From positions 25,665-89,664 of the forward strand of contig CAZJQD010000007.1 of the NCBI GenBank assembly GCA_964548165.1: DNA of 64,000 nucleotides, given 5' to 3'. The notes beneath the pieces are model-generated. The model was not told where the DNA came from. It searched no databases and was given only the letters and a program-made list of their open reading frames with translations. The DNA is from an uncultured bacterium (GTDB lineage Bacteria; UBA8481). Both the position numbers and the translations under genes were made by a program. The stretch's first letter is position 1. Each line of letters starts with the position of its first letter. This document shows positions 1,781-37,285 of the stretch, in pieces.

Positions 1781-2556
1781 TTCGCGCCGGCCGCCCTCGC
1801 GAGGGCATCCCAGCGCTCCCGCTCCGCGGACCCCTCCGTCCTGCGCTCCGCGAGAAGGCGCAGGAAGACGGCCTCGAGACGGGCATCGCGATCGACGACC
1901 AGGCGGGAGAGAGGTCCCACGGCCACGAGCTCGCCGCGGTCCAGGATTGCAACGTCGTCGCAGAGCATCTCCGCGATGTCGAGGAGGTGCGTGGACATGA
2001 AGACGGCCGTGCCCGCGTCCGCCAGCTCGCGGAAGAGATCCTTGACCGTGCGGGCGGCCGGCGGATCGAGCCCGATCAGGGGTTCGTCGACGACCACGAG
2101 CTTCGGGCCGGGCATGACGGCCGCGACGATCGAGAGCTTCTGGCGCATCCCGAACGAGTAGGAGTCGATGAAGTCTCCCCGACGATCCCACAACTCGAAT
2201 CGCTCCAGGAGCGGTTGGGAGCGATCGCGCCAGTCGGTGACGCCATACAGGTCCCCCATGAGCTCCAGGTATTCCCAGGCCGTCAGCTTGGGATAGAGAT
2301 AGGGCGCATCGGGAATGTATCCGGTCACGCGCTTCGCGGCCTCTGGATCCGCCGCCAGGTCGACGCCCGCGATCCGGATCGAGCCCGTGGTGGGCCTGAG
2401 AATGCCCGTGATCAGGCGGATGGTGGTTGTCTTACCAGCCCCGTTGGGTCCCAGGAATCCAAAGACCGTGCCGGCCTCGACCGTCAGCGACAGATCCTGT
2501 ATGATCGTCCGCGGACCAAACCGCTTGGAAACTCTTGTGATTTCAAGAATAGACAT
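1777..2556 (-). CDS. ABC transporter ATP-binding protein
   Basis: Walker A GPNGAGKTT, signature-like SFGMRQK, Walker B VVVDEP and H-loop STH. The N-terminus MSILEITRVSKRFG is typical of ABC ATPases. The start is the ATG at 2554-2556 with a GGGGAAG Shine-Dalgarno (SD) sequence. The track ORF extends upstream spuriously. Confidence 0.85.
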   Translation of the reverse strand: MSILEITRVSKRFGPRTIIQDLSLTVEAGTVFGFLGPNGAGKTTTIRLITGILRPTTGSIRIAGVDLAADPEAAKRVTGYIPDAPYLYPKLTAWEYLELMGDLYGVTDWRDRSQPLLERFELWDRRGDFIDSYSFGMRQKLSIVAAVMPGPKLVVVDEPLIGLDPPAARTVKDLFRELADAGTAVFMSTHLLDIAEMLCDDVAILDRGELVAVGPLSRLVVDRDARLEAVFLRLLAERRTEGSAERERWDALARAAGAK

Positions 2557-2634
2557 GGGCTTCCCCGCCTCGAGGTCTGCCTCCGCGCTCGCGACCGCGG
2601 ATGCGGTCTCGACCGGACGACGAGCCGTCATCAT

Positions 2635-5600: not shown

Positions 5601-6192
5601 GACCTTCATCCTGGCCGGCGGGCGAGGCACGGGGGGATTCACGATCGACTTCCCGGCCTGGGACCAACCGCGCACGGCCTTCTTCGGCCGCGTCAGGGAT
5701 TGCAACCTCGAAATCGTCTACCGGCAGATGCAACCCTTCGCCGGAAATCTCACGGGCAGCGCGTCGGCCGAGGTCTCTCTCCTGATGGACAAACGGGACT
5801 TCCAGCGGCTGGAGGTGACCGGCACCGCGCGCAACGGCGTCATCAGCACGAGCCTCCTCTCGAGCGTCATCGAGCGGATGGACAGCGGCATGGTCCGCAA
5901 TTCGCTCGAGTCCCTGGCTGACTGGAAGTACGATTCCGCCTCGTTCCAGGCTCGCTACAGGCCGAACACCTACAGCCCCTTCGAAGCCGAGGGGCTCTTC
6001 CTGGACGCGAAGAAGACCGCCGAAGTCGTCATGGCGCTCTCGATCGTCGGCAACGTCTACCCGTTCCACCGCGCCCAGATCCTGCACTTGCCGACGCCGT
6101 TCGCGCGCATCGGCGTTCCCCTTCAACTCCAGACGCCCAACATGCCGCTCCGCCTGACCCTCTACCGCGTCGGACGCAAGATCACCCGCTAG
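2635..6192 (+). CDS. AsmA-family / TamB-like outer-membrane biogenesis protein (N-terminal TM anchor, about 1185 aa)
   Basis: ATG at 2635 (MTSLVNSKREEPGPW...), then one TM helix (PWIPALLIGIILLLTAAGYAAL), then a long beta-rich periplasmic region. There is a low-complexity SAAGSAAGSAAG / acidic segment in the middle and an AsmA-like C-terminal region. The gene is divergent from the ABC exporter. The family call is from overall architecture and is not certain. Confidence 0.5.
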   Translation: MTSLVNSKREEPGPWFRPWIPALLIGIILLLTAAGYAALRYLEPRALALVTRELGAAAGRDVQVEGFRLALPVRVDRIVIAGDGIIDSQPLLVLSDVTAWPDVSSLLRFQPRVGLLQAESAVLRLREERGNWSSRGAFTAPAPEVSAIATLSLPNLLLQVETRGRAYERLLRINLDLEGRGAFTLFFHGEEAHGRVHFSGAGPGATYRLDVALDQLPEQLEKAERITVTGNYQVDSQLVDFAVDGALMGKEARISGRVRFDTQRIQTETGAWKWGDQSGRVLVSYDDRRDRRIDVLTVGRVTFPLPMAFLRSEPLTSGTIHVDKVSLSGPLNGPWQVNAHVVGDNLEAQGAMDLVDGQIDGEVTLDVHASRAVRLVHSRAKVRFAHARSAGFEARDADLSLEATPRAVVVSGRARALGGSITARDVRVALGEDGQPESIRGHLALDELDGRELAGVTGDVVLRNVTGNYDVDAWRSRNGWKLHRADGFTELIEGTWRGEPFAVSQAHIIARGQPGEAGSVFSFNGYVRIFEGRGRIRADIEGRDMVDAWMEVHEVDLAAANRVFHNARLAAIARHVDRVSMAGRLRFANDENGDSGFVFDGSINSNGLGIEVSSDAAFGSEPDSSAQPAPSAPAAPTGPVDSPASSAAGSAAGSAAGSAISPGDQAWTIEEERAGGGGNDEERADADAARPRSRALKARAGEPRRDLPRMPSVEEAGLSTMLDLISIFRLDGLPMQIRARGRMRIGGENDPVRMSGLELAIDTDRTILCVDTATWYENRLVAHLRIERIDAEHLRIAARHLAPNPLTESLPLRGALSGDVLLERDSASFYASIGIHGDLTLRDSPLVFNTVGTVTDKGPDLRVEIGTIGIDALHQSFADLNSQMDRNTMKLSGTAGVTLTMTDAWDSMMIVGNASFRDAGVRFPADSIAALGINGNLTFRVRKGRLQPSELLPNAAPITCARLTYNDVVVERIHALARFNEKSLLLESMTFILAGGRGTGGFTIDFPAWDQPRTAFFGRVRDCNLEIVYRQMQPFAGNLTGSASAEVSLLMDKRDFQRLEVTGTARNGVISTSLLSSVIERMDSGMVRNSLESLADWKYDSASFQARYRPNTYSPFEAEGLFLDAKKTAEVVMALSIVGNVYPFHRAQILHLPTPFARIGVPLQLQTPNMPLRLTLYRVGRKITR

Positions 6193-16439: not shown

Positions 16440-17267
16440 ATGAGAATCACTCACAACGAGCTATCAGCCTTTTCCCTCCGGCAGGTTAAATCCGCCGAGA
16501 AGGACGAACTCTCAACCAAGGAACAATTGTCCTCGGGCCGGCGCATCAATCACGCCGGCGACGACGCCGCGGGCCTGGCCATCTCCGACCGCCTCGCGGC
16601 GCGGCACCGCGGCATCCACCAGGCCTGGCGCAATGCCTACGACGCCCAGGCCCTGGTGCGCACCGCGGAAGGCGCCTACGAGGGCGTCAACGAGATGCTC
16701 CAGCGCGTCCGCGCGCTCGCCATCCAGGCCTCCAATGACACCCTCATCACCAGCGACCGGCAGAACATCCAGCTCGAGGTCACCGCGCTCCTCGAGGAGA
16801 TCGATCGGCAGTCGGACACGGTCGAGTACAACGGCAAGAAGCTCTTCGCGCCGACCACGGACCCGGAAGGCCAGGAATACACCTTCCAGGTCGGCTCGGA
16901 CAGGAATGAAACCCTGCGGGTCGATGTCGCGCCCCTGAACGCCACCTGGCTCGGCGTCGAGGACCTCGACGTGAGCTCCCGCGTCTCGGCCGATTCCGCC
17001 ATTGCGGCGGTGGATGGCGCTCTCAATCGCCTCAACGGCCAGCGCGCCGATGTCGGCTCGGTCCAGAACCGGCTCGACGAGGTCATGATGTTCACCGGCA
17101 TCGCCCGCGAGAACACGATCGCGGCGGAGACCAAGATCCGCGACGCCGACTTCGGCCCGACGATCACCGACTATACCAAGCAACAGATCCTGCGCAGTAC
17201 CCGCCTGAGCGCCCTGGCCCAGGCCAATCTCCAACCCGAGTCCGTCCTCCAGCTCCTCAACGCGTAA
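16440..17267 (+). CDS. fliC: flagellin (short, 275 aa, minimal variable domain)
   Basis: N-terminus MRITHN...LSSGRRINHAGDDAAGLAISDRL and C-terminus GSVQNRLDEV...IRDADFGPTITDYTKQQILRSTRLSALAQANLQPESVLQLL match conserved flagellin D0/D1 segments. There are no other flagellar genes in the window. Confidence 0.85.
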   Translation: MRITHNELSAFSLRQVKSAEKDELSTKEQLSSGRRINHAGDDAAGLAISDRLAARHRGIHQAWRNAYDAQALVRTAEGAYEGVNEMLQRVRALAIQASNDTLITSDRQNIQLEVTALLEEIDRQSDTVEYNGKKLFAPTTDPEGQEYTFQVGSDRNETLRVDVAPLNATWLGVEDLDVSSRVSADSAIAAVDGALNRLNGQRADVGSVQNRLDEVMMFTGIARENTIAAETKIRDADFGPTITDYTKQQILRSTRLSALAQANLQPESVLQLLNA

Positions 17268-17411
17268 CAAACTTGCATCGCGGGGACGGAGATTAAACTC
17301 GACCCCAATCTAGCGGCTCCTCCACTCGCGCCAGGCCTGAGCCGGGCTCGGTAGGGGCACACCCCATGGTATGGCCCTACCGTCTTGAACCAAAATCATA
17401 GGGTGAATGCC

Positions 17412-19088
17412 ATGAAACTAGCGGTCTACAAGACGCGGATCGCCTGCACGATCGGACCGGCTAGCCAAGCGCCTGAAGTGATGCTGTCCCTGCTCCATGC
17501 CGGGATGAATATTGCCCGTCTCCGTTACGCTCCCGACGATTTCGCTCACCACAAATCGGTGATCGAGAATCTTCGTCGCACCGCCCTGGAGGCTCAGAAG
17601 CCGCTGGCGATCATGGCAGATCTGCCGGGGCCGAAAAGTCGGGTCGGGGCTGAGTCGCGTGAAAACAAGAAGATGGATCACCCAGGAAATGATCAGGGAG
17701 GCGGTAAGCTTACCGAACACGACCATGACTGCCTGCAATCCGCACTGGAAAACGGCGTGGACGCCGTCTGCCTCTCCGTGGAGGAGCCGGCCAGTGTGGA
17801 CGCCGTACGAAAGGCAGCGACCGACCTGGGACGTCATCCGTTCCTCATGGCGAAGATCGACCGGGCGGCGGCACTGGACCACATCGATGAGATCCTCAGG
17901 GCTGCCGATGGCATCATGATTGCGCGAGCCGACCTCGCGGCGGAAATCCCCGTGGAGAGAATCACCATCATCCAGAAGCAGTTGACACTCAAGGCCATCC
18001 TGCTTGGCAAGCCGGTCATCACGACCACGCAGATGCTGGAATCCATGGTGAACCAGGATCGACCCACGCGGATCGAATGCGCTGACGTGGCCAACGCCAT
18101 CCTCGACGGCACGGATGGCGTAATGCTTTCCGACGAATCGGCACGGGGGAAATTCCCGGTCGAGGCGGTGAGCATGCTGGCGACGATCGCGGCAGCAACC
18201 GAGCCGCATCGGCTCGCGGGTCGCGTCCACGAAGTCTTCGCCGACTACGATCGCGACCACGATGTTCCCCTCGTGCATTTCATCTCGCACAACGTGCAAG
18301 AGACCGTGGAGCGCCTCGCACCGGCAGCTGTCATCGTCTCCACGAACACGGGGTACACGGCGCGGATGATCTCGCGCTTCAAACTGCCATTGTGGATCGT
18401 GGCTGTCAGCCCCGACGAAGCAACGTGCCAGGGGCTGCTATTTTCGTACGGCGTGCACGCGATGCACGAACCTGAGCGCCCCGAAAATTGGATCGAATTC
18501 GCAAGGCACTGGGCGCAAGGCCAGGGGCTGACAGAGGGGCTTGTGGTGTTGACTGAAGGGCCTTCGCCGGAAAACCCGAAGGCGCATCATCGCCTGGAAG
18601 TCATCGATCTGAGCCAAGCCGAGCCCAAGCCCGAAGCCAAGGTCGAGACACCGCCCGAGGTCAAGGCCGAGCCCAAGCCCGAAGCCAAGGTCGAGCCACC
18701 GCCCGAAGCCAAAGCCGAGCCCAAGCCCGAAGCCAAGGTCGAGACACCGCCCGAGGTCAAAGCCGAACTGAAGCCCGAGGCCAAGGTCGAGCCGCCGCCC
18801 GAGGTCAAAGCCGAGCCCAAGCCCGAAGCCAAGGTCGAGCCACCGCCCGAGGTCAAAGACGAGCCGAAGGCCGAAGCCAAGGTCGAGCCACCGCCCGAGG
18901 TCAAAGCCGAACCGAAGCCCGAGGCCAAGGTCGTAGCGCGTACGGAAGCGCAGGCAGACGACATGCAGAAGGCAGAAGTGGCGAACCGTTCGGACGAAAC
19001 TGCGGGGGATCAGGTCGCGCATCTGAAACGAACCGCCGTTATGGACGCGGCCCTTGAGGCTGTCAGCCAGGCGGCCACGGCGAGTTAG
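17412..19088 (+). CDS. pyruvate-kinase-like protein lacking the B (lid) domain, with a C-terminal proline/glutamate/lysine-rich repeat tail; probable pseudoenzyme
   Basis: Start at ATG 17412 (MKLAVYKTRIACTIGP) with SD AGGGTG. Conserved PK segments are present (KIDRAA..DGIMIARADLAAEIP, TQMLESM, PTRIECADVANAILDGTDGVMLSDESARGKFP). Catalytic residues are substituted: NFSHG becomes RYAPDD, DTKGPEIR becomes DLPGPKSR, ARGDLG becomes ARADLA, and SGE becomes SDE. About 6.5 copies of AEPKPEAKVE(P/T)PPEVK follow. Confidence 0.6.
   Translation: MKLAVYKTRIACTIGPASQAPEVMLSLLHAGMNIARLRYAPDDFAHHKSVIENLRRTALEAQKPLAIMADLPGPKSRVGAESRENKKMDHPGNDQGGGKLTEHDHDCLQSALENGVDAVCLSVEEPASVDAVRKAATDLGRHPFLMAKIDRAAALDHIDEILRAADGIMIARADLAAEIPVERITIIQKQLTLKAILLGKPVITTTQMLESMVNQDRPTRIECADVANAILDGTDGVMLSDESARGKFPVEAVSMLATIAAATEPHRLAGRVHEVFADYDRDHDVPLVHFISHNVQETVERLAPAAVIVSTNTGYTARMISRFKLPLWIVAVSPDEATCQGLLFSYGVHAMHEPERPENWIEFARHWAQGQGLTEGLVVLTEGPSPENPKAHHRLEVIDLSQAEPKPEAKVETPPEVKAEPKPEAKVEPPPEAKAEPKPEAKVETPPEVKAELKPEAKVEPPPEVKAEPKPEAKVEPPPEVKDEPKAEAKVEPPPEVKAEPKPEAKVVARTEAQADDMQKAEVANRSDETAGDQVAHLKRTAVMDAALEAVSQAATAS
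18618..18932 (+). repeat. 48-nt coding tandem repeat, about 6.5 copies
   Basis: Unit gccgagcccaagcccgaagccaaggtcgagacaccgcccgaggtcaag with a few substitutions per copy. It encodes AEPKPEAKVETPPEVK. Antisense ORFs 18438-19112 and 18587-18964 are shadows of this repeat. Confidence 0.9.
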
Positions 19089-24442: not shown

Positions 24443-24462
24443 TGCCGGTGGGATTCCGCCGG

Positions 24463-25827
24463 CTACTTTTCGATCCGGAACTTCTCCAGCCGATAGAGAA
24501 ACGTGTGGCGCGTCATGCCCAGGAGGCGGGCCGCCGCGGCCTGGTTGCCGTTCGTCCGGCGGAGCGCCTCGTCGAGGAGATACTTCTCCAGCGCGAAAAA
24601 GTCGATGCCGGCCTCCGGGAGTCGAAAGCCGTAGTCGGCGGGCGCGGCCGGCGCTCGTTCGCGCACCGATTCCGGGAGATCCTCCAGCCCGATGGGACGC
24701 GCTTGCGGCGTGCCGGCGCCCGAGAGGATCAGGACGCGCTCGAGGACGTTCAGGAGTTCGCGGACATTGCCCGGCCACGCGGCCGAGCGCAATGCGGCCA
24801 TGGCCTCGGGATCGATCGGATGAGCGCCCAGGCGATCGCGCGCGATGACCTCGATATCCTCCGTTCTTTCCCGCAAGGGTGGCACGGCGATGGGAAAGAC
24901 CTGGAGGCGATAATAGAGATCGGCACGGAAGCGGCCGGCGGCGACGTTCCTCTCGCAGTCGGCGTTCGTGGCGGCAATGACGCGGACGCTGACCGTGCGC
25001 GACTTCGTCGCCCCGATCGGCGTCACCGCCCGATCCTCGAGCACGCGAAGCAACTTGGCCTGCGCGGGTAGCGGAAGGTCCCCGATCTCGTCGAGGAGCA
25101 GAGTGCCCCCATCCGCGCGGACGAAGACGCCGTCGTGATCGGACACCGCGCCGGTGAAGGCGCCGCGCCGATGGCCGAAGAGCTCGCTCTCGATGAGCTC
25201 CGAGGGAATGGCCGCGCAGTTGACGGCCACGAAGGGTCCGGTCGAGACCGCGGACAAGGCGTGGATCCGCCGCGCCACCAGCTCCTTGCCAACGCCGGTC
25301 TCGCCGGTCACCAGGACCGTCGTCGGCGTCGGCGCGACGCGATCGATCTGCGAGAGCACGTCGCGCATGGCGCGGGAATCGCCGAGAATGCGGTGTCGAT
25401 GGCTCAGCTCGGCGCGGAGGTGATCGACCTCGCCGCGGAGTCCCGCCAGCTCCGCCGCCTTCTCCAGGGTCACCAGGAGCCGCTCGGTCGTGACGGGCTT
25501 CTGCAGGAAATCGGCGGCCCCCTCGCGCACCGCCTCCACCGCCCGCTCGATCGAGCCATGCGCGGTCAGGACGATGACCGGCAGAAGCGGCCGAAGCTCC
25601 TTCAAGCGCGCCGTCAGCGCGAGGCCGTCCATGCCGGGCATCGCGAGGTCCGTGATCACGATCTGGATGGAGGCAAGGTCCGTCGCGAGGAGCGCGGAGG
25701 GATCGGCGAAGACGCGGACATGATGACCAGCCAGTTCCAGGCCAAGCGAGAGCGCTTCCCTGAGATTGGCATCATCGTCGACGAGAGCAATGTTCAGCGC
25801 GCGCCTCGCGCTCACGTCCGCCCCCAC
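24463..25827 (-). CDS. sigma-54-dependent response regulator (NtrC family: REC, AAA+, Fis HTH)
   Basis: REC domain with the phospho-acceptor aspartate (ITDLAMPGMDG). AAA+ motifs GETGVGKE, ESELFGH and the GAFTGA loop. C-terminal HTH (AAAARLLGMTRHTFLYRLEKF). Confidence 0.9.
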   Translation of the reverse strand: MGADVSARRALNIALVDDDANLREALSLGLELAGHHVRVFADPSALLATDLASIQIVITDLAMPGMDGLALTARLKELRPLLPVIVLTAHGSIERAVEAVREGAADFLQKPVTTERLLVTLEKAAELAGLRGEVDHLRAELSHRHRILGDSRAMRDVLSQIDRVAPTPTTVLVTGETGVGKELVARRIHALSAVSTGPFVAVNCAAIPSELIESELFGHRRGAFTGAVSDHDGVFVRADGGTLLLDEIGDLPLPAQAKLLRVLEDRAVTPIGATKSRTVSVRVIAATNADCERNVAAGRFRADLYYRLQVFPIAVPPLRERTEDIEVIARDRLGAHPIDPEAMAALRSAAWPGNVRELLNVLERVLILSGAGTPQARPIGLEDLPESVRERAPAAPADYGFRLPEAGIDFFALEKYLLDEALRRTNGNQAAAARLLGMTRHTFLYRLEKFRIEK

Positions 25828-26873
25828 GCGAGGACAAACCGGGCGCCGCCCAGGGGGGAATCGTCCACGGCGAGCCGCCAGCCGTGAGCGTCGGCGACAC
25901 CGCGAACGATGGCCAGTCCCAGGCCCGATCCGCCGGCCCGTCGTCCGACAAAAGGCTCGAAGACGGCATCGCGATCACCCGGCGCGATACCCGGACCCGA
26001 ATCCTCGATGAGCAACCGCTCGGCCTCGACGCGAACATGAACTTCCGACGGTATCGGCTCCGAGCGCGCCGTCTTCGACCCTGAGGTTTCCGCATCGTCG
26101 CGAGCTCGGGTCGGGCTTCCCTTTCCGTGGCGCGCCGCGGCGACGGCGTTCTGCAAGAGATTGCGTATGGCTCTCTCCGCCAGTCCCGGGTCCGCGGAGA
26201 TTCGGTCCGGCGCCCCGTCGACGTCGAGCGTGACGACGACGCCCGTGGCCGTCACGCGAAGAGCGGCAACCAGGCGCTCCACGAGCGGGGCCATCGCCAC
26301 GTTGACGCACCGAGCCTCGATCGGGCGGGCAAGATTGAGATAGTCACCCAACAGGGCCTCGATCCGATCGGCCTCCTCGGTCACGACATCGAGCAGGTGC
26401 GAGAGCCGATCGTCTCCCAATCGCGCGCGAACGGCCGGCGTTCCCAGCGCGCCGCCGGCCGCCGTGATCGTCTGGAGCGGATTGCGGACGTCGTGCGCCA
26501 ACATCGCGGCGAGCTCGCCCACCCTCGCCAGGTTGCGCTGGCGCGCCAGCTCGTCCGCGTCCCGGACGCGCCGATCCGTCAGCTCGCCGACCAAGCCGCC
26601 GACCAGCAGGTAGAAGCCGAACTCGGCCACGAGCGCCGACGAGGATCCGCCGTAGAGCGCGTGGTGCTGGTGATGGCTTCCCACGAGAAAGAAGGTGGGG
26701 AGGTAGGCGACGATGACGAGCACGGCGGCGCCGAGACCTCCGGTCCGCCCGAACCAGACGGCGGCCAGGAGGACGGGGATCGTGAGGAGGCGAAAGTGCA
26801 GGAAGTGCGTGGGATCGTCGTGGCCGATGAGCCCGTAATGAAGGAGAAGAACGAGGGCCCCAAGGCCGCCCAC
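25812..26873 (-). CDS. sensor histidine kinase (membrane; HisKA plus HATPase_c)
   Basis: Three N-terminal TM helices. H-box LAHDVRNPL, and G-boxes DSGPGI and GGSGLGLAI. The gene overlaps the response-regulator start by 16 nt. Confidence 0.85.
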   Translation of the reverse strand: MGGLGALVLLLHYGLIGHDDPTHFLHFRLLTIPVLLAAVWFGRTGGLGAAVLVIVAYLPTFFLVGSHHQHHALYGGSSSALVAEFGFYLLVGGLVGELTDRRVRDADELARQRNLARVGELAAMLAHDVRNPLQTITAAGGALGTPAVRARLGDDRLSHLLDVVTEEADRIEALLGDYLNLARPIEARCVNVAMAPLVERLVAALRVTATGVVVTLDVDGAPDRISADPGLAERAIRNLLQNAVAAARHGKGSPTRARDDAETSGSKTARSEPIPSEVHVRVEAERLLIEDSGPGIAPGDRDAVFEPFVGRRAGGSGLGLAIVRGVADAHGWRLAVDDSPLGGARFVLAWGRT

Positions 26874-26905
26874 GACGGCCAGGCGGAGGCGAGGGGACGT
26901 CGGGA

Positions 26906-29900
26906 TCAGGGGCGGCGGCCCATCATGCGACCGAGAACGGAGCCGAATCCAGAACGCGACTTCGGCCCGTGCTTGCGGATCTCGGCGAGGATCTTATAGG
27001 TCTCGGCGTGGAGCTCCCCCTGCGCGGCCGCGGTCTCGACGAGCGTGCGCGCGGCATCCAGGTCGCCGGATCGGAACATGATGAGCGCCAGGTTATGGAC
27101 AGCGCGCTGGTGCGTGGGGACCTCGGCGATGACCCGCTGGTAATACCGCACGGCCTCGGGGATATACCCCGTGTCCTCGAGCACCCGCGCCTTCTCGATC
27201 ATCTCGTCGATGGAGAGTTTATCATCAAGGGGCGGGAGTTCTTCCGCGATGAATTCGCCGCCGTCGTCAAAGGCAAGGCGAGGTTGCAGGAGCGGGGCGG
27301 CGGGCGATTCCGACGCCTGGGGCAAGGAGGGCTGCTTCGCCTGCGCGGCAGGCGCCGGCGCAGGTTCAGGCGCGGCAACGAATTCCGGCGGCAGAGGCGC
27401 CTGCCAGCCAGGAGCCGGGGCGATCGCGACGATCTCCGGGGGCGGCGGCTCGCCCACCGACTCGGTTGCGCGCGCCAATTCCGCCTCACGCGATGCCAGG
27501 TCGCGCCTCAGTGCCGCGCTGGCCGACTCGGCGGCGCGCCTGGCGGCCTCCGCCCGGTCACGCTCAGCCGCCAGGAGCTCACGCTCGGCCGCATCGTGGG
27601 CCCGCTCTTCCTCCAGGCTTCGCGCCCGCCCTCGCAGGGCGCTCAGCTCAGCCTGGGCCGCCTCCAGCTCCATGGCCAGTCGCTCCTGGTCCGCGGACGC
27701 CGCGACCGCGCTCGCGCGTTCCCGCTCCTCCAGCCGCGACCGTTCCATGAGCGCTTCCAGGTCGGCCAGTCGCCGCGCCGCCGCCTCGCGCTCGCGAGCC
27801 AGCGCCGCATTCTCCTCCCGAAGGCTTAGAGCCGCCCTCTCGGCCGCGCGCCACTTCTCGCGAATCTCGGCCAGTTCCGCCGAGCTCTTTGCCGGGGCCG
27901 CTCCCTCCGGGGCACCGGGCGCTGCGGCGCCCTGGCGCGAAACCAGGACCGAGGCCAGCTCATTCTGGATCCGGATGACCTCGGCGCGCAGTCGCGCGGT
28001 CTCGACGGCGTCCGCCGCCGTCTCGCCCGCACCCTCGCCCGGCGTAGCGACCGGCCGAGCCGCAAGGTCCTTGTGCAGGCGATCGATCTCGGCGCGCATC
28101 TCGGAGATGATCCGCGCCTCTCCATCATCACCGGCCACCTTGACCCGCTCGCGGAGCCACGTCCCCACCTCGCGCTTGAGAATGTCGAGCGCGCGGATCT
28201 CGAAATCCTTCTCGCGTCGCAGCAGGACGACCTCGCGGCGCATCCGCTCCAGGGCGTCGTCGAGAATCCGGCGTTCCTCGTCGGATGCGGCATCCTTGAG
28301 CCTCTCGGTGGGGGGAGAAACCGCCTGGACCCGGGCGCGAGCCGCCGCGAGCTCCTCCTCGACCGCCAGGAGATGGCGTCGATCCAACTCGCGCGCGGCA
28401 TCCGCGCTGGCGGCGGCGCGACGAGCCGCTTCCAACTCCTCGCGCATCCGCGCCAGTTCCTCTTGAGCGGCCTTGAGAGCCTCATGGTCCAGGTTCGGCG
28501 CCGAAGCGACCGGAAGGTCCGGGGGCGACGCCAGGGCGGCCAGCCGCTTCTCGGCGAGGTCGCGCTGCAGGGCGTCTCGCTCGGCGCGCATGGCATCCAG
28601 CTCGGCGCGCGCCTTCTCCATCCGGTCCCGCATCTCCGCAGCTCGCCGGTCCACGTCCTCGCGCGCCGCCTCGGCGGCTCGCCGTTCCTCTTCCACGGCA
28701 CGCCGCGCATGTTCCGACGCACGGGCGAGAGCATCCTGTTCCGCGGCAAGGGTTTCGACCACGGCACGGCGCTCCGCGATCTCGGACTCGATCTCCCCCA
28801 GCTCGCGCTCCACGGCCGACCGACGCTCCGCCTGCTCCTCCTCGAGCGCCTGCTCCCGGCCCGTCGAGGCCGCGGCGCGCAGAGGTTCAGTCGCCGCCCG
28901 GAGTTCCTCCAGCTCACGTTGAAGCGCCGCAACGCGATCCTCCATCAGGGCGCGCTGTGCGGCGAGGTCATCGTGCTGTTCCCTGAGGGCGGCCATGCTG
29001 CCCGCAAACTCCCGGCGCTCCTCCTCGAAGCGCGCCCGGTTCGCGGCCGCCGCCTCGATCTCGCCCGCCAACCGATCCCGCTCGGCGCGCTGAACGTCGA
29101 TGGAGGAAGCGAGCTCGGCGTGTGCGGCCGCCGCCTCCAGGGCGACGCGGCTCTCGGCATCCGCTCGCCTCGCCGCGATCTCCGCGTCGAGCGCGGCGAG
29201 GGCCTCGGCACGTCGCGACTCCAGCTCGCGCTGAAGGACCTGGAGGCTCTCTTCGCGCTGGGCGGCCATCTCGGCCTGCTGAACCTTGTCGCGTTGCTCC
29301 CACCGTTCCCCGAGCGCCGCGGACCGCTCGGCGTTCGCGGCATCGCGCGCCGCCTGCAACGCCTCAATCTCGCGCTCCAGGTCGCTTCTGCGCGACGCGG
29401 CCGCCTCCACCTCGCCGCGCATCGCCTCGAGGCGCGTCGCCAGGGTTCGCTCCTCCTCCAGGATCGCGGAACGATCCGCGGAGGCATGCTCGATCTCCTC
29501 GGCAAGTCGTCGACTCTCGGCCCGCGCGCTCTCCAGGCCCGCGGCCACGGCCGCGCGCTCGGCCTCGCACTCCTCCCGGAACGCGGCCCGCGCCGCCGTC
29601 TGCTCGATGCGAAGCGCCTCCAGGGCGGCCGCCCGCTCGTCCTCCAGCTGGCGCGCCAGGACGAGCGCCTCCTCCTCCTTCAGTCGCGCCAACTCCTCGG
29701 CCAATGCCCGTTCCGCGGTAGCACGGCGCTCGTCGAGCTCGCGCCAGAGTGCCGCGCGCTGCTCCTCGAACTCCGGCGGCATCGCCCCTTCGGCGTCGGA
29801 CGCGACGACAGGCACCGTCTCCGTCCCGTAGCCGCCTGGCGCCGGCGCCGAGAAGACCTGATCACGCTCGGCCTCTGCCTGTGCCCGCGCCGCGAGCGCT

Positions 29901-32458
29901 TCATCTCGCGCCGCGAATGCTTCATCCCGCGCCGCGAGCGCTTCATCCCGCGCCGCGAGCGCTTCATCCCGCGCCGCGATAGCCGCCGCGCGATCCGCGA
30001 GAACGGCATCGCGCTCGGACTGCGCCTGGTCCCTCGAAGCGCTGAGCGACTCCGTTTCGGCCGCCAGGGCCTCCTTCTGCGCGCCGTAGGCACGAAACTC
30101 CTCCAGGAGCTCGGAACGGCGCCGTCCCAGCTCCACGAGCGCCGCATCCAGCTCCTCGCGCTCCGCGCGCCGGGCGGCGAGCTGGGCCTCGACCTCCAGG
30201 ATGCCGCCGACGCGCGACGCCTCCGCGCCCAGGCCGTGGGCCGCGGATTCGGCCTGCATCGCGGACTCCTCCGCCACTGCGCGTTTCCGCTTCAGGTCCT
30301 CGATGGTCGAGGACAACTGCGCCTGGTCCTCGCGAAGCCCGCGGCAAATCTCCTTCAGCCGCGCTTCCTCCTGCCTCGTCGCCTCCACGTCTCGCGCCAG
30401 GTCGGCCGAGCCCGCGCGGGCCGCCTCGAGCCGGGACTGCCAGCCGGCGGCCTCCTCGCGGACCGCCGCCAGCTCGCCCTGCCGCTCGGCCAGCGCCGCG
30501 CCCATCGCGCTCAGCTCGCCGCGCCGCGCTTCCAGCTCGGCATCCAGCGCGCCGCGTTCCTCATCGGTGCGTCTCTGCGTTTCGTCCCGCAACTGCTGGA
30601 GACGCCCGCGGACCTCCGCCAGCTCCGACGCCACCGCTTCGCGATCCGCCGCCAGGCGCCCCGCCTCCGCGCGGATCGCCGCGAGATCGGCGCGAGCCAG
30701 TTCGAGGTCCGCGTCGAGAGCGGCTCGCGACTGTCGGGCCTCCTCCTCGAGGACGGACCGCTGGCGAGCCGCCGCCGAGGCCGCGTCGGCCGCCGACGCC
30801 AAGGCCTCGTCACGCGTGGTGAGCGCCGCCGCCAGTTCCGCCTGCACGTTCACCAGCTGGGCGCGCGCCGCGCCCGCCCGTTCCTCAGCTTCGCGACCCT
30901 CGAGTTCCGCGGCGGCGCGGGCTTCTTCCGCGCGCTGGCGCGCCTCCGCAAGAGCGGTCGCCTCCGCCCGCAGGCGCTCCAGGCCCGCGTCCAGCTCCCT
31001 GGCCTCCACCTCCGCGGCATGCCTCTGCGCGAGTCGCGCGTCCCGCGCGCGCTCCGAGGCCGAAAGCTCCTCGCGAACCGCGACGAGGCCCGCGTCCAGC
31101 TCCTCCCTCTGCCGGGACACCAGCGCCGCCTCGGTCCGCAGGCGATCGAGCTCGGCGCGGGCCTCCACGAGCTCCTGGTCGATGCGGACGCGCTCGTGGG
31201 ATCCCGCCTGGAGCTCCTCGTGCTGGTCGCGACGCGCCGACGCCGCCGCTTCCTCGACCTTGGCGAGGTCCGCGCCCAGGAGCGATCGCCGCGCCTCGAG
31301 CTCGGCTATGTGCTCGGTCAGCGAACGCGCCTTGTTGGCCTCGGCCGCCAGGGACTCAGCCGCCATCTTCTGGCGCTCGACCATCCGCCCCTCGACCTCG
31401 AAGCTCTTCATCTCGAGATCGGAGAGCTGTTGTTGAACCTCGGTCCGCCGATCCTCCAGCCGGGTCAGCTCGTCGCGCACCTCGTGGAGCGAGGCCTTCA
31501 GGGCCTCGAGCTCCCCGACCTGCTGCGTCAGGGCCTGGACCTTCTCGCCCAGCCTCTGCTCCTCCATCGCCAGCGCGGCAATGGCCACGCTATCGGTCGG
31601 CGCCGCGTCGCCGGCCGCGGTCCGCGCGTCGCGATCGGCGGAACCGGCGGCGTCTCCACCGAAATTCCCGGCATCCGTCGTCCCCTCAGCACCCGCCGCC
31701 GCCATGAGGGCCGCAAGACCTTCTAGTGCGGGTGCTGCGACTGCCTCCAGGACCCCGGGCGTACTGCCGGCCATCCCTCCCCCTTCCGGCGATTCTTCCG
31801 GCTTCTCCCATCCGCAGAGCGAACAGCGCCCGCTGTCCTTGAGCATGTTGGCCTTGCACTGCGGACAAGTCTCGAACGTCGGCTCGTGGAAGAGCACGGT
31901 CTCGCGGTCCGACAGGAGCATGCCGCAGATGTAGCAGCGATCGGCATCGTGCTTCACGACGGCGCGACAGTTCGGACAGCGCTTCGGCGGCTTGACCTCC
32001 TCCTTCTTCTCTTCCTTCGGCTCGGCCTCGGGCTCCCCACCCATCCAGCCTGGACGAATACGCGATTGCATGCTGGATGCCCCGCCCAGGGAGCGGCTCA
32101 ACCGCTCCCGCTGCATCGCCTCCGCGGCGCGGACCGCCTGGTCGCGCCCCACGTAGGTGCTGAACTCGCGCGACCCGCCCTGCACCTCGAGGAGGTCATC
32201 GAGCGCGCGCTCTTCGCCGGAAAAGACGAGGAAGACGCGCCCCTCCTTGCGCCCCAGCTTGCGCGCGGCCTTGATGAGCAGTTCCCCGGCGCCGGGAATG
32301 AACCGCCGCGCCTCGCGGAGATCGACCACCAGCACGGTCTCGCTGGCGATGAGCTCCTCGAGCCCGCGGGTGAAGATGTCCATGTCCTGGGGGTCCATGA
32401 ACCCGCGCATCTGCACGACGGGGACGGAACCGATACGGGCGGAGGAGATATCAAGCAT
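26906..32458 (-). CDS. giant (1850 aa) protein: N-terminal STAS-like domain, two zinc ribbons, about 1400-aa coiled coil, Pro-rich linker, C-terminal TPR
   Basis: N-terminal SpoIIAA/STAS-like fold (VVQMRGFMDPQDMDIFTRGLEELIASETVLVVDLREARRFIPGAGELL) without a phosphorylatable Ser. Zinc ribbons CPNCx9CYICG and CPQCx9CSLCG. A long Ala/Glu/Arg/Leu heptad-rich region (ARDEALA...). PPPPEIVAIAPAPGW linker. TPR-like C-terminus (YYQRVIAEVPTHQRAVHNLALIMFRSGDLDAARTLVE). Confidence 0.8.
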   Translation of the reverse strand: MLDISSARIGSVPVVQMRGFMDPQDMDIFTRGLEELIASETVLVVDLREARRFIPGAGELLIKAARKLGRKEGRVFLVFSGEERALDDLLEVQGGSREFSTYVGRDQAVRAAEAMQRERLSRSLGGASSMQSRIRPGWMGGEPEAEPKEEKKEEVKPPKRCPNCRAVVKHDADRCYICGMLLSDRETVLFHEPTFETCPQCKANMLKDSGRCSLCGWEKPEESPEGGGMAGSTPGVLEAVAAPALEGLAALMAAAGAEGTTDAGNFGGDAAGSADRDARTAAGDAAPTDSVAIAALAMEEQRLGEKVQALTQQVGELEALKASLHEVRDELTRLEDRRTEVQQQLSDLEMKSFEVEGRMVERQKMAAESLAAEANKARSLTEHIAELEARRSLLGADLAKVEEAAASARRDQHEELQAGSHERVRIDQELVEARAELDRLRTEAALVSRQREELDAGLVAVREELSASERARDARLAQRHAAEVEARELDAGLERLRAEATALAEARQRAEEARAAAELEGREAEERAGAARAQLVNVQAELAAALTTRDEALASAADAASAAARQRSVLEEEARQSRAALDADLELARADLAAIRAEAGRLAADREAVASELAEVRGRLQQLRDETQRRTDEERGALDAELEARRGELSAMGAALAERQGELAAVREEAAGWQSRLEAARAGSADLARDVEATRQEEARLKEICRGLREDQAQLSSTIEDLKRKRAVAEESAMQAESAAHGLGAEASRVGGILEVEAQLAARRAEREELDAALVELGRRRSELLEEFRAYGAQKEALAAETESLSASRDQAQSERDAVLADRAAAIAARDEALAARDEALAARDEAFAARDEALAARAQAEAERDQVFSAPAPGGYGTETVPVVASDAEGAMPPEFEEQRAALWRELDERRATAERALAEELARLKEEEALVLARQLEDERAAALEALRIEQTAARAAFREECEAERAAVAAGLESARAESRRLAEEIEHASADRSAILEEERTLATRLEAMRGEVEAAASRRSDLEREIEALQAARDAANAERSAALGERWEQRDKVQQAEMAAQREESLQVLQRELESRRAEALAALDAEIAARRADAESRVALEAAAAHAELASSIDVQRAERDRLAGEIEAAAANRARFEEERREFAGSMAALREQHDDLAAQRALMEDRVAALQRELEELRAATEPLRAAASTGREQALEEEQAERRSAVERELGEIESEIAERRAVVETLAAEQDALARASEHARRAVEEERRAAEAAREDVDRRAAEMRDRMEKARAELDAMRAERDALQRDLAEKRLAALASPPDLPVASAPNLDHEALKAAQEELARMREELEAARRAAASADAARELDRRHLLAVEEELAAARARVQAVSPPTERLKDAASDEERRILDDALERMRREVVLLRREKDFEIRALDILKREVGTWLRERVKVAGDDGEARIISEMRAEIDRLHKDLAARPVATPGEGAGETAADAVETARLRAEVIRIQNELASVLVSRQGAAAPGAPEGAAPAKSSAELAEIREKWRAAERAALSLREENAALAREREAAARRLADLEALMERSRLEERERASAVAASADQERLAMELEAAQAELSALRGRARSLEEERAHDAAERELLAAERDRAEAARRAAESASAALRRDLASREAELARATESVGEPPPPEIVAIAPAPGWQAPLPPEFVAAPEPAPAPAAQAKQPSLPQASESPAAPLLQPRLAFDDGGEFIAEELPPLDDKLSIDEMIEKARVLEDTGYIPEAVRYYQRVIAEVPTHQRAVHNLALIMFRSGDLDAARTLVETAAAQGELHAETYKILAEIRKHGPKSRSGFGSVLGRMMGRRP
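29888..29980 (-). repeat. 21-nt tandem repeat (about 4.4 copies) inside the coiled-coil gene
   Basis: Plus-strand unit cgccgcgagcgcttcatcccg. On the coding strand it encodes ARDEALAARDEALAARDEAFAARDEALA heptads. Confidence 0.8.
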
Positions 32459-32482
32459 GCGAGGTTCCCGCTGCGGGGCGGA

Positions 32483-32893
32483 TCACGCCGCCGACGGCAC
32501 CACGGCGACCGCGGCGATCTCGATGAGGACTCCCCTGGGAAGGGCCGGAACCTCCACGGTGATCCGCGCGGGCGGTGGACCGGCCGTGAACCGGCGACCG
32601 TAGATCTCGTTGACCGTGGCGAAGTGCTGGAGCGAGGTGACGAAGATCTGGCACTGCACGATGTCGCCCCAGCCACAGCCGCCGGCGGCCAGGACGGCCT
32701 CGAGATTCTCCAGTGTGCGCTCGGTCTGCTCCACGATCCCACCTTCGACGACGAGTCCGGTGGTGGGATCGAGCGGAATCTGGCCGGACGTGTAGAGGAA
32801 ACCGTTTCCAGACGCGCCTGTGGCCAGGATGGCCTGGGAATAGGGACCAATCGCGGCGGGTGCTCGTTCGGTAGCGATCGCCTTCTTGCTCAT
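32483..32893 (-). CDS. ridA: RidA/YjgF-family reactive-intermediate deaminase
   Basis: Start at ATG 32893 (MSKKAIATERAPAAIGPYSQAI...), 136 aa, with a typical RidA core (GPYSQA, fold ending EIAAVA). The track ORF start at 33034 is an upstream extension. Confidence 0.8.
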   Translation of the reverse strand: MSKKAIATERAPAAIGPYSQAILATGASGNGFLYTSGQIPLDPTTGLVVEGGIVEQTERTLENLEAVLAAGGCGWGDIVQCQIFVTSLQHFATVNEIYGRRFTAGPPPARITVEVPALPRGVLIEIAAVAVVPSAA

Positions 32894-33051: not shown

Positions 33052-34887
<1,836 letters not shown>

Positions 34888-34897
34888 ACGAGGGTTC

Positions 34898-35317
34898 GTG
34901 ACGCGCACCCTTCACCTCCTCGCTGGGCATGCGTGCGCGGGACTCGGGATCGTGGGCCTCTTTGTCCCGCTCCTGCCGACGACGCCGTTTCTTCTCCTGG
35001 CCCTCTATTTCTACTCGCGGAGTTCCACGCGCATGCACCAGTGGATGCTGCGCCATCCCCGGTTCGGTGAGACCCTGCGGCACTGGCAGGAACACGGCTC
35101 GATCGGCCTCCGGGCCAAGGTGCTGGCGACGAGCCTCATCCTGCTCTCGTCAGCCTACCTGGTCGCCACGCGTCCCTGGCCGCTCGCCGCCCAGGTCGCC
35201 ATCGGCATCGGCGGCGGCATCCTCATCCTGTTTCTCGTCTCGCGCCCGTCGCCGCCCGCGCGGCCTGCCGATGAGCCTTACGAAGGCCCAGGGAAGATCA
35301 ACCGCCCAGCATCGTGA
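34898..35317 (+). CDS. YbaN/DUF454-family inner-membrane protein
   Basis: 139 aa, two hydrophobic hairpins (GIVGLFVPLLPTTPFLLLALYFYSR...), the typical YbaN pattern. Confidence 0.65.
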   Translation: MTRTLHLLAGHACAGLGIVGLFVPLLPTTPFLLLALYFYSRSSTRMHQWMLRHPRFGETLRHWQEHGSIGLRAKVLATSLILLSSAYLVATRPWPLAAQVAIGIGGGILILFLVSRPSPPARPADEPYEGPGKINRPAS

Positions 35318-35687
35318 GGAGATCCTTGAGGTGGAATGGCTTGGGCAGGAGCGACACGTTCTCACCCTCCAGGCCGCTATGCCCGAGGTAATCGGGATCC
35401 AGCGCACCGGTGATGAGGACGATGCGCGGCCGAGGAGACTGCGCTTGAGCCGCCCGCGCCAGGTCCAGGCCGCTCACGCGCGGCATGTTCACGTCGAGGA
35501 GAAGGTAGGCGTAGTGGCGAGACGCGATGAGCTTCAAGGCCTCGGCGCCATCGGTCGTCGTCGTCACGTCGTAGCCGCGGGAATCGAGCAGCGACTCGAG
35601 CGAGCGGCAGATCGCGGCCTCGTCATCCACCAGGAGCAGGGATCGGTCCCCGGCGGACAGGGGCGTCCTCGCCCCGGTCGCGGTCAC
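35298..35687 (-). CDS. stand-alone response-regulator receiver (CheY-like)
   Basis: LLVDDE, phospho-acceptor LLLDVNMP, and the conserved K in LLPKPF. Confidence 0.8.
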   Translation of the reverse strand: MTATGARTPLSAGDRSLLLVDDEAAICRSLESLLDSRGYDVTTTTDGAEALKLIASRHYAYLLLDVNMPRVSGLDLARAAQAQSPRPRIVLITGALDPDYLGHSGLEGENVSLLPKPFHLKDLLTMLGG

Positions 35688-37285
35688 GCGATCCCTCCCG
35701 CGGGCGCGCTGGCGCCGCTCTCAAGCGGAAAACAGAGCGTGAACGCGGAGCCGCTTCCCAGCGCGCTCTCCACCGTGATCCGTCCCCCGTGCTCCTGCAT
35801 GATGCTGTAAGAAACCGCCAGGCCCAGGCCGTTGCCCTTGAGATGGGGCTCGCCATTCGCGTAGGCCCCCTTCGTGGTGAAGAACGGCGTGAATATTTGA
35901 TCCATCACCTCGCGGCTCATCCCGGTGCCACGGTCGGCGACGCGGAGCCGCGCTTCCCGGCCGTCATCCGCGATCGACGCGGCCAGGGTGAGAGAGCCGC
36001 CCTGGGTCGTCCTCATGGCGTCGCGGGCGTTGAGGACGAGATTGAGTAGAACCTGCTGGATCCGGCCGCTGTCCGCCATCACGACCAGGTCCTCCGGGAT
36101 GGCGACCCGGACCTGGATGTTCTCGGCCAAGAGCGCCGTGCGCTGCACGGTCAGCACGCGTTCGACCATCTCCAGGACGCGCGTCCGCTCCATCCGGGGC
36201 GGCACGGGGCGCGCCAGGGCCATGATCCCGGCGGCCACCTGTCTCCCCCGCTCCGTCTGCTCGTCGATGGTCGCCAGCCGGGCGAGGGCCGCCGGGTGCG
36301 CGGCAACCGCGGGATCCATCTCCAGCATCTGCGACTCAATGCGCACGATGGCGAGAATATTGTTGAACTCGTGCGCGATCCCGGAGGCGAGCTTACCGAC
36401 GGCGGCCAGACGCTCGGAGCGCACCAGGGCCTCCTCCGTCTTGCGCTTCTCGGTGATGTCCTGGACGGTGCCGCGCGAGACGAGCGGCCGACCGTCGGGA
36501 CTGAACTCCGTCTCGCACCGCTCCTCGACGTGCTTGACCCGCCCGTCCTGCATGAGGAGGCGATGGGTGATCGCGTAGGGCGTCCGCTCCTTGAGCGATC
36601 GGCTGTAGGCGTCGTTGACCGCGTCCCTGTCCTCCGGGTGGATGGCCGCCAGGAAGGCCTCGTACGAGGCCTGGAACCGACCCGGATCGATCTCGAAGAT
36701 CCGGTAGATCTCGTCGGACCACGCGAGCTGGTTGCGCTCGATATCCAGCTCCCAGCTCCCTATCGACGCGACCCGCTGGGCCTCCTTCAACCGCTCCTCG
36801 CTCTCGCGAAGCGCGGTCTCGGCGCTCTTGCGCCGCGTGATATCCAGCTCCATCCCGTTCCAGAGGATGCCGCCGTCCGCTTCGCGCACGGGTTCGGAGC
36901 AGAGATGCGACCAGCGGGCTCCGCCCTCGCGGGTCCGGACGCGCACCTCCTCCGAAAAGACCGTCATCGTCCGCGCGGCCTCGGACTCGGCGGCCGCGAC
37001 TCGATCCCGGTCCTCCTCCAGGATCTGGCCATACAAGGCCTGCGGATTCGCCAGGACCTCCGCGACGCTTATGCCGTGGAGTTTCTCGACGCCGGCGCTG
37101 ACGTACGTGAACTGCCGCCGGCCGTCCGGGTGAAACCTCACCTGGTAGATCATCCCGTCCGGCAGGTTGTCACTGAGGAACCGGAGGCGGCGCTCCCTAT
37201 CCTCGAGCTCATGGGCCATGCGAGCCGGCTCCGGGTGCCCGGGCATATCCTTCGCATCATGCGCCATCGCGATCCCATTATACAC
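35684..37285 (-). CDS. PAS-domain sensor histidine kinase (two PAS domains, HisKA, HATPase_c)
   Basis: H-box IAHEFNNIL, N-box LNLVLNARDA, and G-boxes DRGTGM and GNGLGLAVS. Overlaps the REC gene by 4 nt. Confidence 0.85.
   Translation of the reverse strand: MYNGIAMAHDAKDMPGHPEPARMAHELEDRERRLRFLSDNLPDGMIYQVRFHPDGRRQFTYVSAGVEKLHGISVAEVLANPQALYGQILEEDRDRVAAAESEAARTMTVFSEEVRVRTREGGARWSHLCSEPVREADGGILWNGMELDITRRKSAETALRESEERLKEAQRVASIGSWELDIERNQLAWSDEIYRIFEIDPGRFQASYEAFLAAIHPEDRDAVNDAYSRSLKERTPYAITHRLLMQDGRVKHVEERCETEFSPDGRPLVSRGTVQDITEKRKTEEALVRSERLAAVGKLASGIAHEFNNILAIVRIESQMLEMDPAVAAHPAALARLATIDEQTERGRQVAAGIMALARPVPPRMERTRVLEMVERVLTVQRTALLAENIQVRVAIPEDLVVMADSGRIQQVLLNLVLNARDAMRTTQGGSLTLAASIADDGREARLRVADRGTGMSREVMDQIFTPFFTTKGAYANGEPHLKGNGLGLAVSYSIMQEHGGRITVESALGSGSAFTLCFPLESGASAPAGGIA

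Follow-up and report, generated by a model that had tools for sequence, protein, structure and literature searches.

The DNA analysed here, a stretch of 64,000 nucleotides from an uncultured bacterium of the GTDB lineage UBA8481 (contig CAZJQD010000007.1 of assembly GCA_964548165.1, positions 25,665 to 89,664; hereafter the window), encodes on its minus strand a protein of 1850 amino acids, which we call the big protein, composed of a divergent STAS domain, a double zinc ribbon, a very long helical rod, a Pro-rich linker, a TPR module and a basic tail. We somewhat favour the view, with reservations given below, that the big protein is a lineage-restricted, elongated coiled-coil scaffold or tether of the cytoplasm. 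It is a rare, uncharacterised member of a very small unnamed family. Neither a transmembrane segment nor a signal peptide was found in its sequence, which argues for a cytoplasmic location, and Walker A and ABC signature motifs were likewise absent. Rod length differs among orthologues, the end domains are conserved, and the two near-identical strains L001 (5163-9525) and L005 (607-5147) differ by clean indels of 49 and 7 amino acids inside the rod. Together with the absence of catalytic motifs, these features point to a structural spacer or tether rather than an enzyme.

Full-length relatives of the big protein are very few. When 1.84 billion cluster representatives were searched exhaustively by phmmer, with the N-terminal 230 amino acids as query, the full architecture was found only in P0001 (locus L002, 1809 amino acids, GTG start) and P0002 (locus L003, 1626 amino acids), and two further proteins, P0025 and P0041, shared only the STAS variant. 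A scan of 185,579 species genomes returned a single locus, L001, in a metagenome-assembled genome (MAG) labelled Candidatus Hydrogenedentes, and a scan of JGI metagenomes added only L005, a second strain of the L001 organism, besides two unrelated zinc-ribbon matches. The exhaustive search was needed, as word-indexed searches with the N-terminal 228 amino acids or with the family profile recovered P0025 but no full-length orthologue. The family therefore comprises four lineages in all, the window and three others, every carrier being uncultured and the three others being MAGs, two of which bear the labels Hydrogenedentes and Lindowbacteria. The genomes of these three are GCA_964499705.1, GCA_016765405.1 and the PEWQ01 MAG. 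The window organism and the L002 MAG are moderately close, with identities of 65% for IleRS, 60% for HtpG and 83% for the class-III aminotransferase. The window's own big protein was not present in the searched protein collections, and P0002, deposited as 'hypothetical protein [Candidatus Lindowbacteria bacterium]', is the only orthologue with a source name. As no family in Pfam or NCBIfam covers the architecture and literature searches gave no description of it, the statement in an earlier note on this DNA that the architecture is undescribed still holds.

A reading frame of this length in GC-rich, repeat-rich sequence could be an artefact, or the true gene could be the open reading frame (ORF) of 1217 amino acids which lies inside it on the opposite strand (28073-31726, plus) and which has the same third-position GC of 0.84. 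The big frame is nevertheless real, because it has orthologues at the protein level in genomes whose GC content ranges over 41-62%: frame and domain order are kept at 41%, 47% and 62% GC, and in the 41% GC relative, which has matching N- and C-terminal domains, no opposite-strand ORF exceeds 212 amino acids. Furthermore, the STAS, zinc-ribbon and TPR regions all score on the minus-strand frame. We give practically no credence to the artefact, which by sequence comparison is already refuted by the conservation data. The 1217-aa ORF was rejected as a true gene and is a codon shadow of Ala/Glu/Arg codons (GCC/GAG/CGC-type), a trap for gene callers.

The earlier note had proposed an N-terminal STAS domain, and both a profile search and a structural comparison returned this fold. 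The family profile matched the PDB sequences 4hyl_A (1.3e-6), 4qtp_A (2.6e-4) and RsfB 8ih8_A (1.5e-3). A single-sequence AlphaFold2 (AF2) model of the N-terminus, which reached a predicted local distance difference test score (pLDDT) of only 56, was replaced by a model from a 5-sequence alignment, with pLDDT 77-93 over residues 1-125. When this model was compared with the PDB by Foldseek, the best 30 matches were all STAS domains (anti-sigma antagonists, RsbS, RsbV, SpoIIAA), with target template-modelling (TM) scores of 0.75-0.80 and E-values down to 2.7e-6. Profile and predicted fold thus confirmed that residues 1-125 belong to the STAS/SpoIIAA-like superfamily. The Pfam STAS models, run on the single window sequence, stayed below threshold although profile and fold match, which marks the domain as a divergent STAS.

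The replacement of the phospho-serine, also claimed by that note, was seen in the HMMER alignments to 4hyl and 4qtp, in which the canonical phospho-serine column is occupied by Gly56 of the window protein. In the SpoIIAA/RsbV type, a Ser/Thr at the start of helix 2 (Ser58 in SpoIIAA) is phosphorylated by a partner kinase. The window protein lacks a conserved Ser/Thr at this point and so falls outside that type with respect to phosphorylation. In its relatives the residue is Glu (L002, L003, P0025 and P0041) or, in L001/L005 only, Ser, and the Asp that precedes it in canonical antagonists is replaced by Pro, in the relatives as in the window protein. Neither a HATPase_c_2 kinase nor a PP2C phosphatase was found among the scanned ORFs of the window or in L002-L004. 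The drift between Gly, Glu and Ser suggests that the STAS head has largely left a kinase-controlled cycle and may now be a fixed interaction or oligomerisation domain.

Next to this head, residues 158-218 contain two successive CxxC...CxxC knuckle pairs and make up a double zinc ribbon. The eight cysteines (161/164/175/178 and 198/201/212/215) are invariant in the 4 orthologues, so that the two ribbons of the earlier note stand, with a spacing of x10 in place of the x9 given there. The ribbons are joined by MLLSDRxTxLFHxxxF, the best conserved stretch of the big protein, and identity in the orthologue alignment peaks at 0.71 over residues 176-200. On the full protein DZR (PF12773) scored 23.4 bits, with a cut-off of 27.3, and UPF0547 was also weak. 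Around 38 other proteins matched the N-terminal query in the exhaustive phmmer search via the zinc-ribbon region only, and of six such proteins run against Pfam, four had a strong DZR match. The zinc-ribbon-only proteins P0003-P0011 are unrelated multi-domain proteins and were rejected as a functional lead.

The rod dominates the composition of the big protein, which overall is 22% Ala, 15% Glu, 13% Arg and 10% Leu; in the rod itself, Ala, Glu, Arg, Leu and Asp together make up 65%. We tested for heptads in local windows, as global Fourier analysis is blurred by register shifts. In the best a/d register of 28-residue windows, strong hydrophobics occupied 0.47 of positions, compared to 0.355 +/- 0.007 in shuffled sequences. 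This occupancy is consistent with a coiled coil whose register shifts often, in which the protein would presumably dimerise. The rod is interrupted by Pro/Gly breaks at about residues 868-897, 1310-1325, 1380-1384, 1468-1480 and 1509-1525, leaving five main helical segments of 572, 414, 144, 29 and 144 amino acids, 1303 in total. Of the approximately 1,400 amino acids of uninterrupted heptad coiled coil described in the earlier note, the long heptad-rich rod was recovered and its continuity was not. If fully extended, the five segments would span about 193 nm, an upper limit. NCBIfam matches of the rod, to SMC and other helix-rich families, were at the coiled-coil level and far under the cut-offs. 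One island within the rod, residues 1401-1470, is conserved in all orthologues, and its profile gave no significant match in PDB or Pfam.

At the C-terminal end, the Pro-rich linker and TPR module named in the earlier note were both found, the linker in the amino acid composition and the TPR above the Pfam gathering thresholds. When the C-terminal 123 amino acids were scanned alone, TPR_14 scored 35.0 bits (cut-off 23.5), TPR_19 33.2 (25) and TPR_2 29.8 (27). These values correspond to only about two repeats. TPR families match all 3 orthologues, and the C-terminal profile matched consensus TPR proteins in the PDB with E-values up to 7.8e-36. The last 20 or so residues form a basic tail with a net charge of +4 to +6 and a hydrophobic moment of 0.53-0.76 in all three full-length orthologues; a MinD tail gives 0.48. 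It is possible that this tail is a membrane-targeting helix of the MinD kind.

In the arrangement that we propose, the divergent STAS domain would be a protein-binding or oligomerisation head at one end of the molecule, most likely fixed rather than a switch, because Gly56 bars phosphorylation at the canonical site in the window genome. The highly conserved double zinc ribbon would lie beside this head, and the rod, up to about 190 nm long when fully extended, would be hinged at its Pro/Gly breaks, with residues 1401-1470 as a putative docking island. The other end would consist of the Pro-rich linker, the two-repeat TPR module and the basic amphipathic tail, which could fix it to the cytoplasmic membrane from the inside. 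The action of such a protein would be structural, in that it would position or space the partners bound at both ends and at the island.

Several points weigh against a scaffold or tether of this design. Parts of the Ala/Glu/Arg-rich rod could be a single alpha-helix or disordered. The membrane-targeting role of the tail, read from hydrophobic moment and charge, is only a possibility. The L005 copy appears to end before the TPR region, so that either TPR and tail are dispensable or the contig end is faulty; two in-frame TAA codons lie there 36 nt apart near the contig end, coiled-coil-like sequence continues beyond them, and the copy may be a pseudogene or an allele that is truncated, if the contig end is not at fault. 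One lineage, L001/L005, keeps Ser at the STAS phospho-site, so that a phosphorylation switch may exist in part of the family. Lastly, the downstream flank is visible in only two relatives, which makes the synteny counts small.

The big gene is one of four close-packed minus-strand ORFs (24463-32893), with ridA upstream and a histidine kinase and an NtrC-type regulator downstream. The spacings agree with those of the earlier note: a 24-nt gap between ridA and the big gene, a 32-nt gap between the big gene and the kinase, and a 16-nt overlap of kinase and regulator. In the gaps between the four genes, no terminator-like site was found. In three of the four lineages (the window, L001/L005 and, with a 35-nt gap, L002), ridA immediately precedes the big gene, and the two are probably transcribed together; co-transcription of all four genes in the window genome is plausible. 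The product of ridA scored 142.7 bits against TIGR00004 (cut-off 106), and its start is Met48 of a longer ORF. Upstream of the cluster, HtpG (33052-34887) is transcribed divergently. The regulator matched Sigma54_activat (8.6e-69) and Response_reg (2.2e-24) in Pfam, its GAFTGA motif being read in the translation.

The two-component pair adjoins the big gene in only one of the three lineages with a visible downstream flank, namely the window. In L002 and L003, no kinase or regulator separates the big gene from the convergent block shared with the window, which consists of His_Phos_1 (in L002 only, 8 nt from the big gene), PMT_2, Redoxin, a pseudouridine synthase, Lgt and LspA. The window pair sits exactly where these two relatives have a direct junction between big gene and block, and tblastn with the window kinase and regulator gave no match in L001-L003. 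As the pair is missing from an otherwise conserved block, the simplest reading of these gene orders is that it would be an insertion specific to the window lineage, outside the core of the family. The earlier note had described the protein as hard-wired to its own sigma-54 signalling pair and had suggested looking for the four-gene neighbourhood in relatives, its absence to count against the link. This claim found no support, since the pair is absent from both relatives in which the flank can be seen, tblastn found nothing and no sigma-54 consensus lies upstream. What looks like a sigma-54 two-component link would then come from a gene insertion at this locus and not from a conserved system. 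No -24/-12 match was found upstream of ridA or the big gene, and the window as a whole holds 15 matches, with 13.9 expected. Nor did a scan for the sigma-70 consensus yield a promoter. By eye, ridA is preceded by a weak TTGGGA-N18-TATTCT, which is not counted as evidence.

One could still hold that the coiled-coil protein and the kinase/NtrC pair are a single module, in which the kinase senses assembly of the scaffold or the scaffold operon is switched on by the regulator through sigma-54. The common strand, the close spacing, the terminator-free gaps and a regulator with intact receiver and GAFTGA would all suit such a module. We consider it improbable, since the pair is missing at the orthologous position in L002 and L003 despite the conserved flanking block, the tblastn search against L001-L003 was negative and sigma-54 sites are lacking where they would be needed and do not exceed expectation in the window; kinase/regulator pairs are, moreover, common and often inserted between unrelated genes. 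Only a little less doubtful, and unlikely all the same, is a role in partner switching, in which the STAS head would bind an anti-sigma kinase of RsbW/SpoIIAB type encoded elsewhere, and the rod would localise or sequester this kinase and so tie sigma-factor activity to cell position. The nearest relatives in sequence and fold are indeed anti-sigma-factor antagonists, some solved together with their kinases (8ih8, 1th8, 6m36), the Ser is kept in L001/L005, and the Glu of most other members resembles the phosphorylated state. However, canonical SpoIIAA/RsbV in the phosphorylated, Glu-like form no longer binds the kinase, Gly takes this position in the window protein, and the kinase and phosphatase domains expected of such a system were found neither in the scanned ORFs of the window nor in the retrieved loci. 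STAS domains also occur as plain interaction or oligomerisation modules, for example in RsbS/RsbR and SLC26 transporters.

We rate two further proposals lower still. The big protein might organise the nucleoid or other nucleic acid, its zinc ribbons binding DNA or RNA and its rod bridging or tethering, in the manner of an SMC or MukB protein without the ATPase. Nucleic acid is a frequent ligand of zinc ribbons, no other part of the protein is as well conserved as the ribbon pair, and NCBIfam gave weak matches to SMC coiled-coil arms. We find this very hard to sustain, because the two SMC models scored 41.7 and 26 bits, far under their cut-offs of 567 and 729 and over the coiled coil only, because Walker A, ABC signature, hinge and antiparallel arm symmetry are all absent, and because DZR-type ribbons are found in many unrelated proteins. 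Equally speculative is a membrane-anchored ruler or tether of at most about 190 nm with a STAS head engaged in partner switching, where some lineages would have a head open to phosphorylation and others a locked one. It would tie the activity of sigma factors, or other signalling, to a fixed place or distance in the cell, with additional wiring to the inserted kinase/NtrC pair in the window genome. If true, it would have no precedent as a cytoskeleton-like scaffold for STAS partner switching. In the scaffold or tether that we favour, a STAS domain would have come to serve a structural protein as its head, and the drift of its phospho-site between Ser, Glu and Gly would offer a small natural experiment on the loss of the switch in partner-switch domains. 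The immediate impact is modest, as all carriers are uncultured.

Table 1 Features of the big-protein locus and gene orders around it. Positions are those of the window; BIG denotes the gene of the big protein.
Feature	Position	Strand	Description and basis
ridA	32483-32893	minus	136 aa, Rid-family enamine/imine deaminase, first gene of the cluster; Ribonuc_L-PSP 1.4e-36 (Pfam)
Big gene	26906-32458	minus	1850 aa; STAS, two zinc ribbons, predicted segmented coiled coil, Pro-rich linker, TPR, basic tail; translation and orthologues
STAS (SpoIIAA-like) domain	32084-32458	minus	Residues 1-125; Gly56 at phospho-serine position
Double zinc ribbon, 2x CxxC-x10-CxxC	31805-31987	minus	Residues 158-218; invariant Cys, weak Pfam DZR/UPF0547
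Ala/Gly-rich low-complexity linker	31571-31783	minus	Residues 226-296; conservation 0.03-0.08
Ala/Glu/Arg/Leu-rich helical rod	27455-31570	minus	Residues 297-1668; composition, heptads
21-nt tandem repeat, 4.6 copies	29884-29979	minus	Encodes (AARDEAL)n inside the rod; Tandem Repeats Finder
Conserved rod island, LRREKxFExxxxEILKxE...W...EMRxEIxxL	28049-28258	minus	Residues 1401-1470; full-length alignment
Pro-rich linker	27224-27454	minus	Residues 1669-1745; composition; length varies among orthologues
Two TPR repeats and capping helix	26984-27223	minus	Residues 1746-1825; Pfam, PDB profile
Basic amphipathic tail	26909-26983	minus	Residues 1826-1850; charge and hydrophobic moment
Sensor histidine kinase	25812-26873	minus	Polytopic DUF4118-like membrane domain, HisKA, HATPase_c; Pfam and hydrophobic windows
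NtrC-type sigma-54 activator	24463-25827	minus	Receiver, AAA+ with intact GAFTGA, Fis-type helix-turn-helix
GC-rich 8-bp hairpin	24444-24463	not assigned	Between the convergent regulator and His_Phos_1 genes; terminator scan and sequence
Gene order, window			IleRS, LspA, (gap), RluD-like, (flagellin, pyruvate kinase, Redoxin, ABC, ABC-2), Redoxin, PMT_2, His_Phos_1; convergent with these, (regulator, kinase), BIG, ridA; HtpG divergent
Gene order, L002			IleRS, LspA, Lgt, RluD, Redoxin, PMT_2-like, His_Phos_1; convergent with these, BIG, ridA, aminotransferase
Gene order, L003			LspA, Lgt, RluD, Redoxin, PMT_2; convergent with these, BIG, cNMP-binding gene
Gene order, L001/L005			ridA overlaps the BIG start by 1 nt; contigs end before the downstream flank

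Around these features the neighbourhood, judged by its gene order, is rearranged about conserved anchor genes. A flagellin gene (16440-17267, plus), followed by the pyruvate kinase, Redoxin and ABC transporter genes, is inserted in the IleRS-LspA-RluD-Redoxin-PMT_2 block, which is contiguous in L002 and L003. A second two-component pair, consisting of a PAS-PAS histidine kinase and a single-domain receiver (35298-37285, minus), lies between HtpG/DUF454 and the class-III aminotransferase; the corresponding interval of L002 holds other genes, and several of their families (cytosine/purine permease, carbamoyltransferase) are present at 56.9-60.7 kb in the window. The hairpin at 24444-24463 is followed by a T-run on the plus strand only; it is a probable terminator of His_Phos_1, and the minus-strand cluster of four genes may end there too. 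Elsewhere, the ORF at 17385-19088 (plus), a pyruvate kinase by eye, contains a 48-nt tandem repeat (18616-18933, 6.6 copies, 90% identity) encoding (EPKPEAKVEPPPEVKA)n, a Pro/Lys/Glu-rich C-terminal tail which is unusual for pyruvate kinase. The ORF at 1615-6192 (plus; 1525 amino acids) has a coding-like third-position GC of 0.82 and no Pfam match at E <= 1e-5.

Among known systems, an SMC, MukB or Rad50 protein was considered and rejected, as Walker A and LSGGQ-like motifs are absent and the termini are STAS and TPR, and a surface or S-layer protein was rejected for want of a signal peptide or transmembrane segment. The two identities that the earlier note had named as fatal to its reading, a known SMC/chromosome-partition protein and a surface-layer protein, are thus both set aside. 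With SpoIIAA, RsbV, RsbS and mycobacterial RsfB (4hyl, 4qtp, 8ih8, 6jhk) the big protein shares the STAS fold (TM 0.75-0.80 over approximately 115 residues, 16-24% identity), and the phospho-site loop and helix of the anti-sigma antagonists and stressosome STAS domains align with its own. These antagonists are, however, proteins of about 110-120 amino acids, standing alone or placed C-terminally in RsbR, whereas here the STAS domain heads a protein of 1850 amino acids, carries Gly for the phospho-Ser (Glu or Ser in relatives) and has no cognate kinase or phosphatase nearby. The unnamed metagenomic proteins P0041 (493 amino acids) and P0025 (200 amino acids) share the STAS variant of the big protein, with about 28% identity and an LLPEG motif, followed by coiled coil, and lack zinc ribbons, long rod and TPR. 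In P0041 (L004, 6608-8089) the STAS variant is followed by a short coiled coil, a hydrophobic stretch (by eye a putative transmembrane segment) and a LytR_C domain; its gene adjoins a FIST-domain gene, and about 2 kb downstream lies a flagellin gene. P0041 and its setting suggest that this variant of STAS is found repeatedly on coiled-coil proteins with a link to the cell envelope.

The earlier note compared the big protein with AglZ/FrzS and Scy/FilP, and in both cases the likeness is one of architecture, as no homology was detected. AglZ and FrzS of Myxococcus also have an N-terminal alpha/beta domain of signalling type followed by a long coiled coil, and in FrzS the phospho-acceptor site of the head is degenerate, as in the big protein. 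Their head is a CheY-like receiver, whereas no Response_reg match was found by Pfam in the big protein, whose head is a STAS domain. Zinc ribbons, TPR and basic tail are additional in the big protein, and its rod is three to five times longer. Crescentin, FilP and Scy of Streptomyces, Ccrp of Helicobacter and the coiled-coil-rich proteins (CCRPs) of cyanobacteria resemble the big protein in being cytoplasmic, in having a very long heptad rod without an enzymatic domain and in keeping the character of the rod while its sequence is poorly conserved; Pfam, NCBIfam and phmmer detected no sequence homology to any of them. The CCRPs have short unstructured heads and tails, whereas the big protein carries STAS, double zinc ribbon and TPR as folded modules, and its rod holds a conserved island. 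Intermediate-filament-like CCRPs such as crescentin, FilP and Scy are defined by nucleotide-independent filament formation in vitro and by an IF-like segmented rod; for the big protein, the comparison covered rod composition, segmentation and the local heptad signal. If the scaffold reading is right, the big protein would therefore have a distinct architecture among bacterial coiled-coil scaffolds, in which a very long rod is joined by three folded modules for interaction and perhaps by a membrane anchor.

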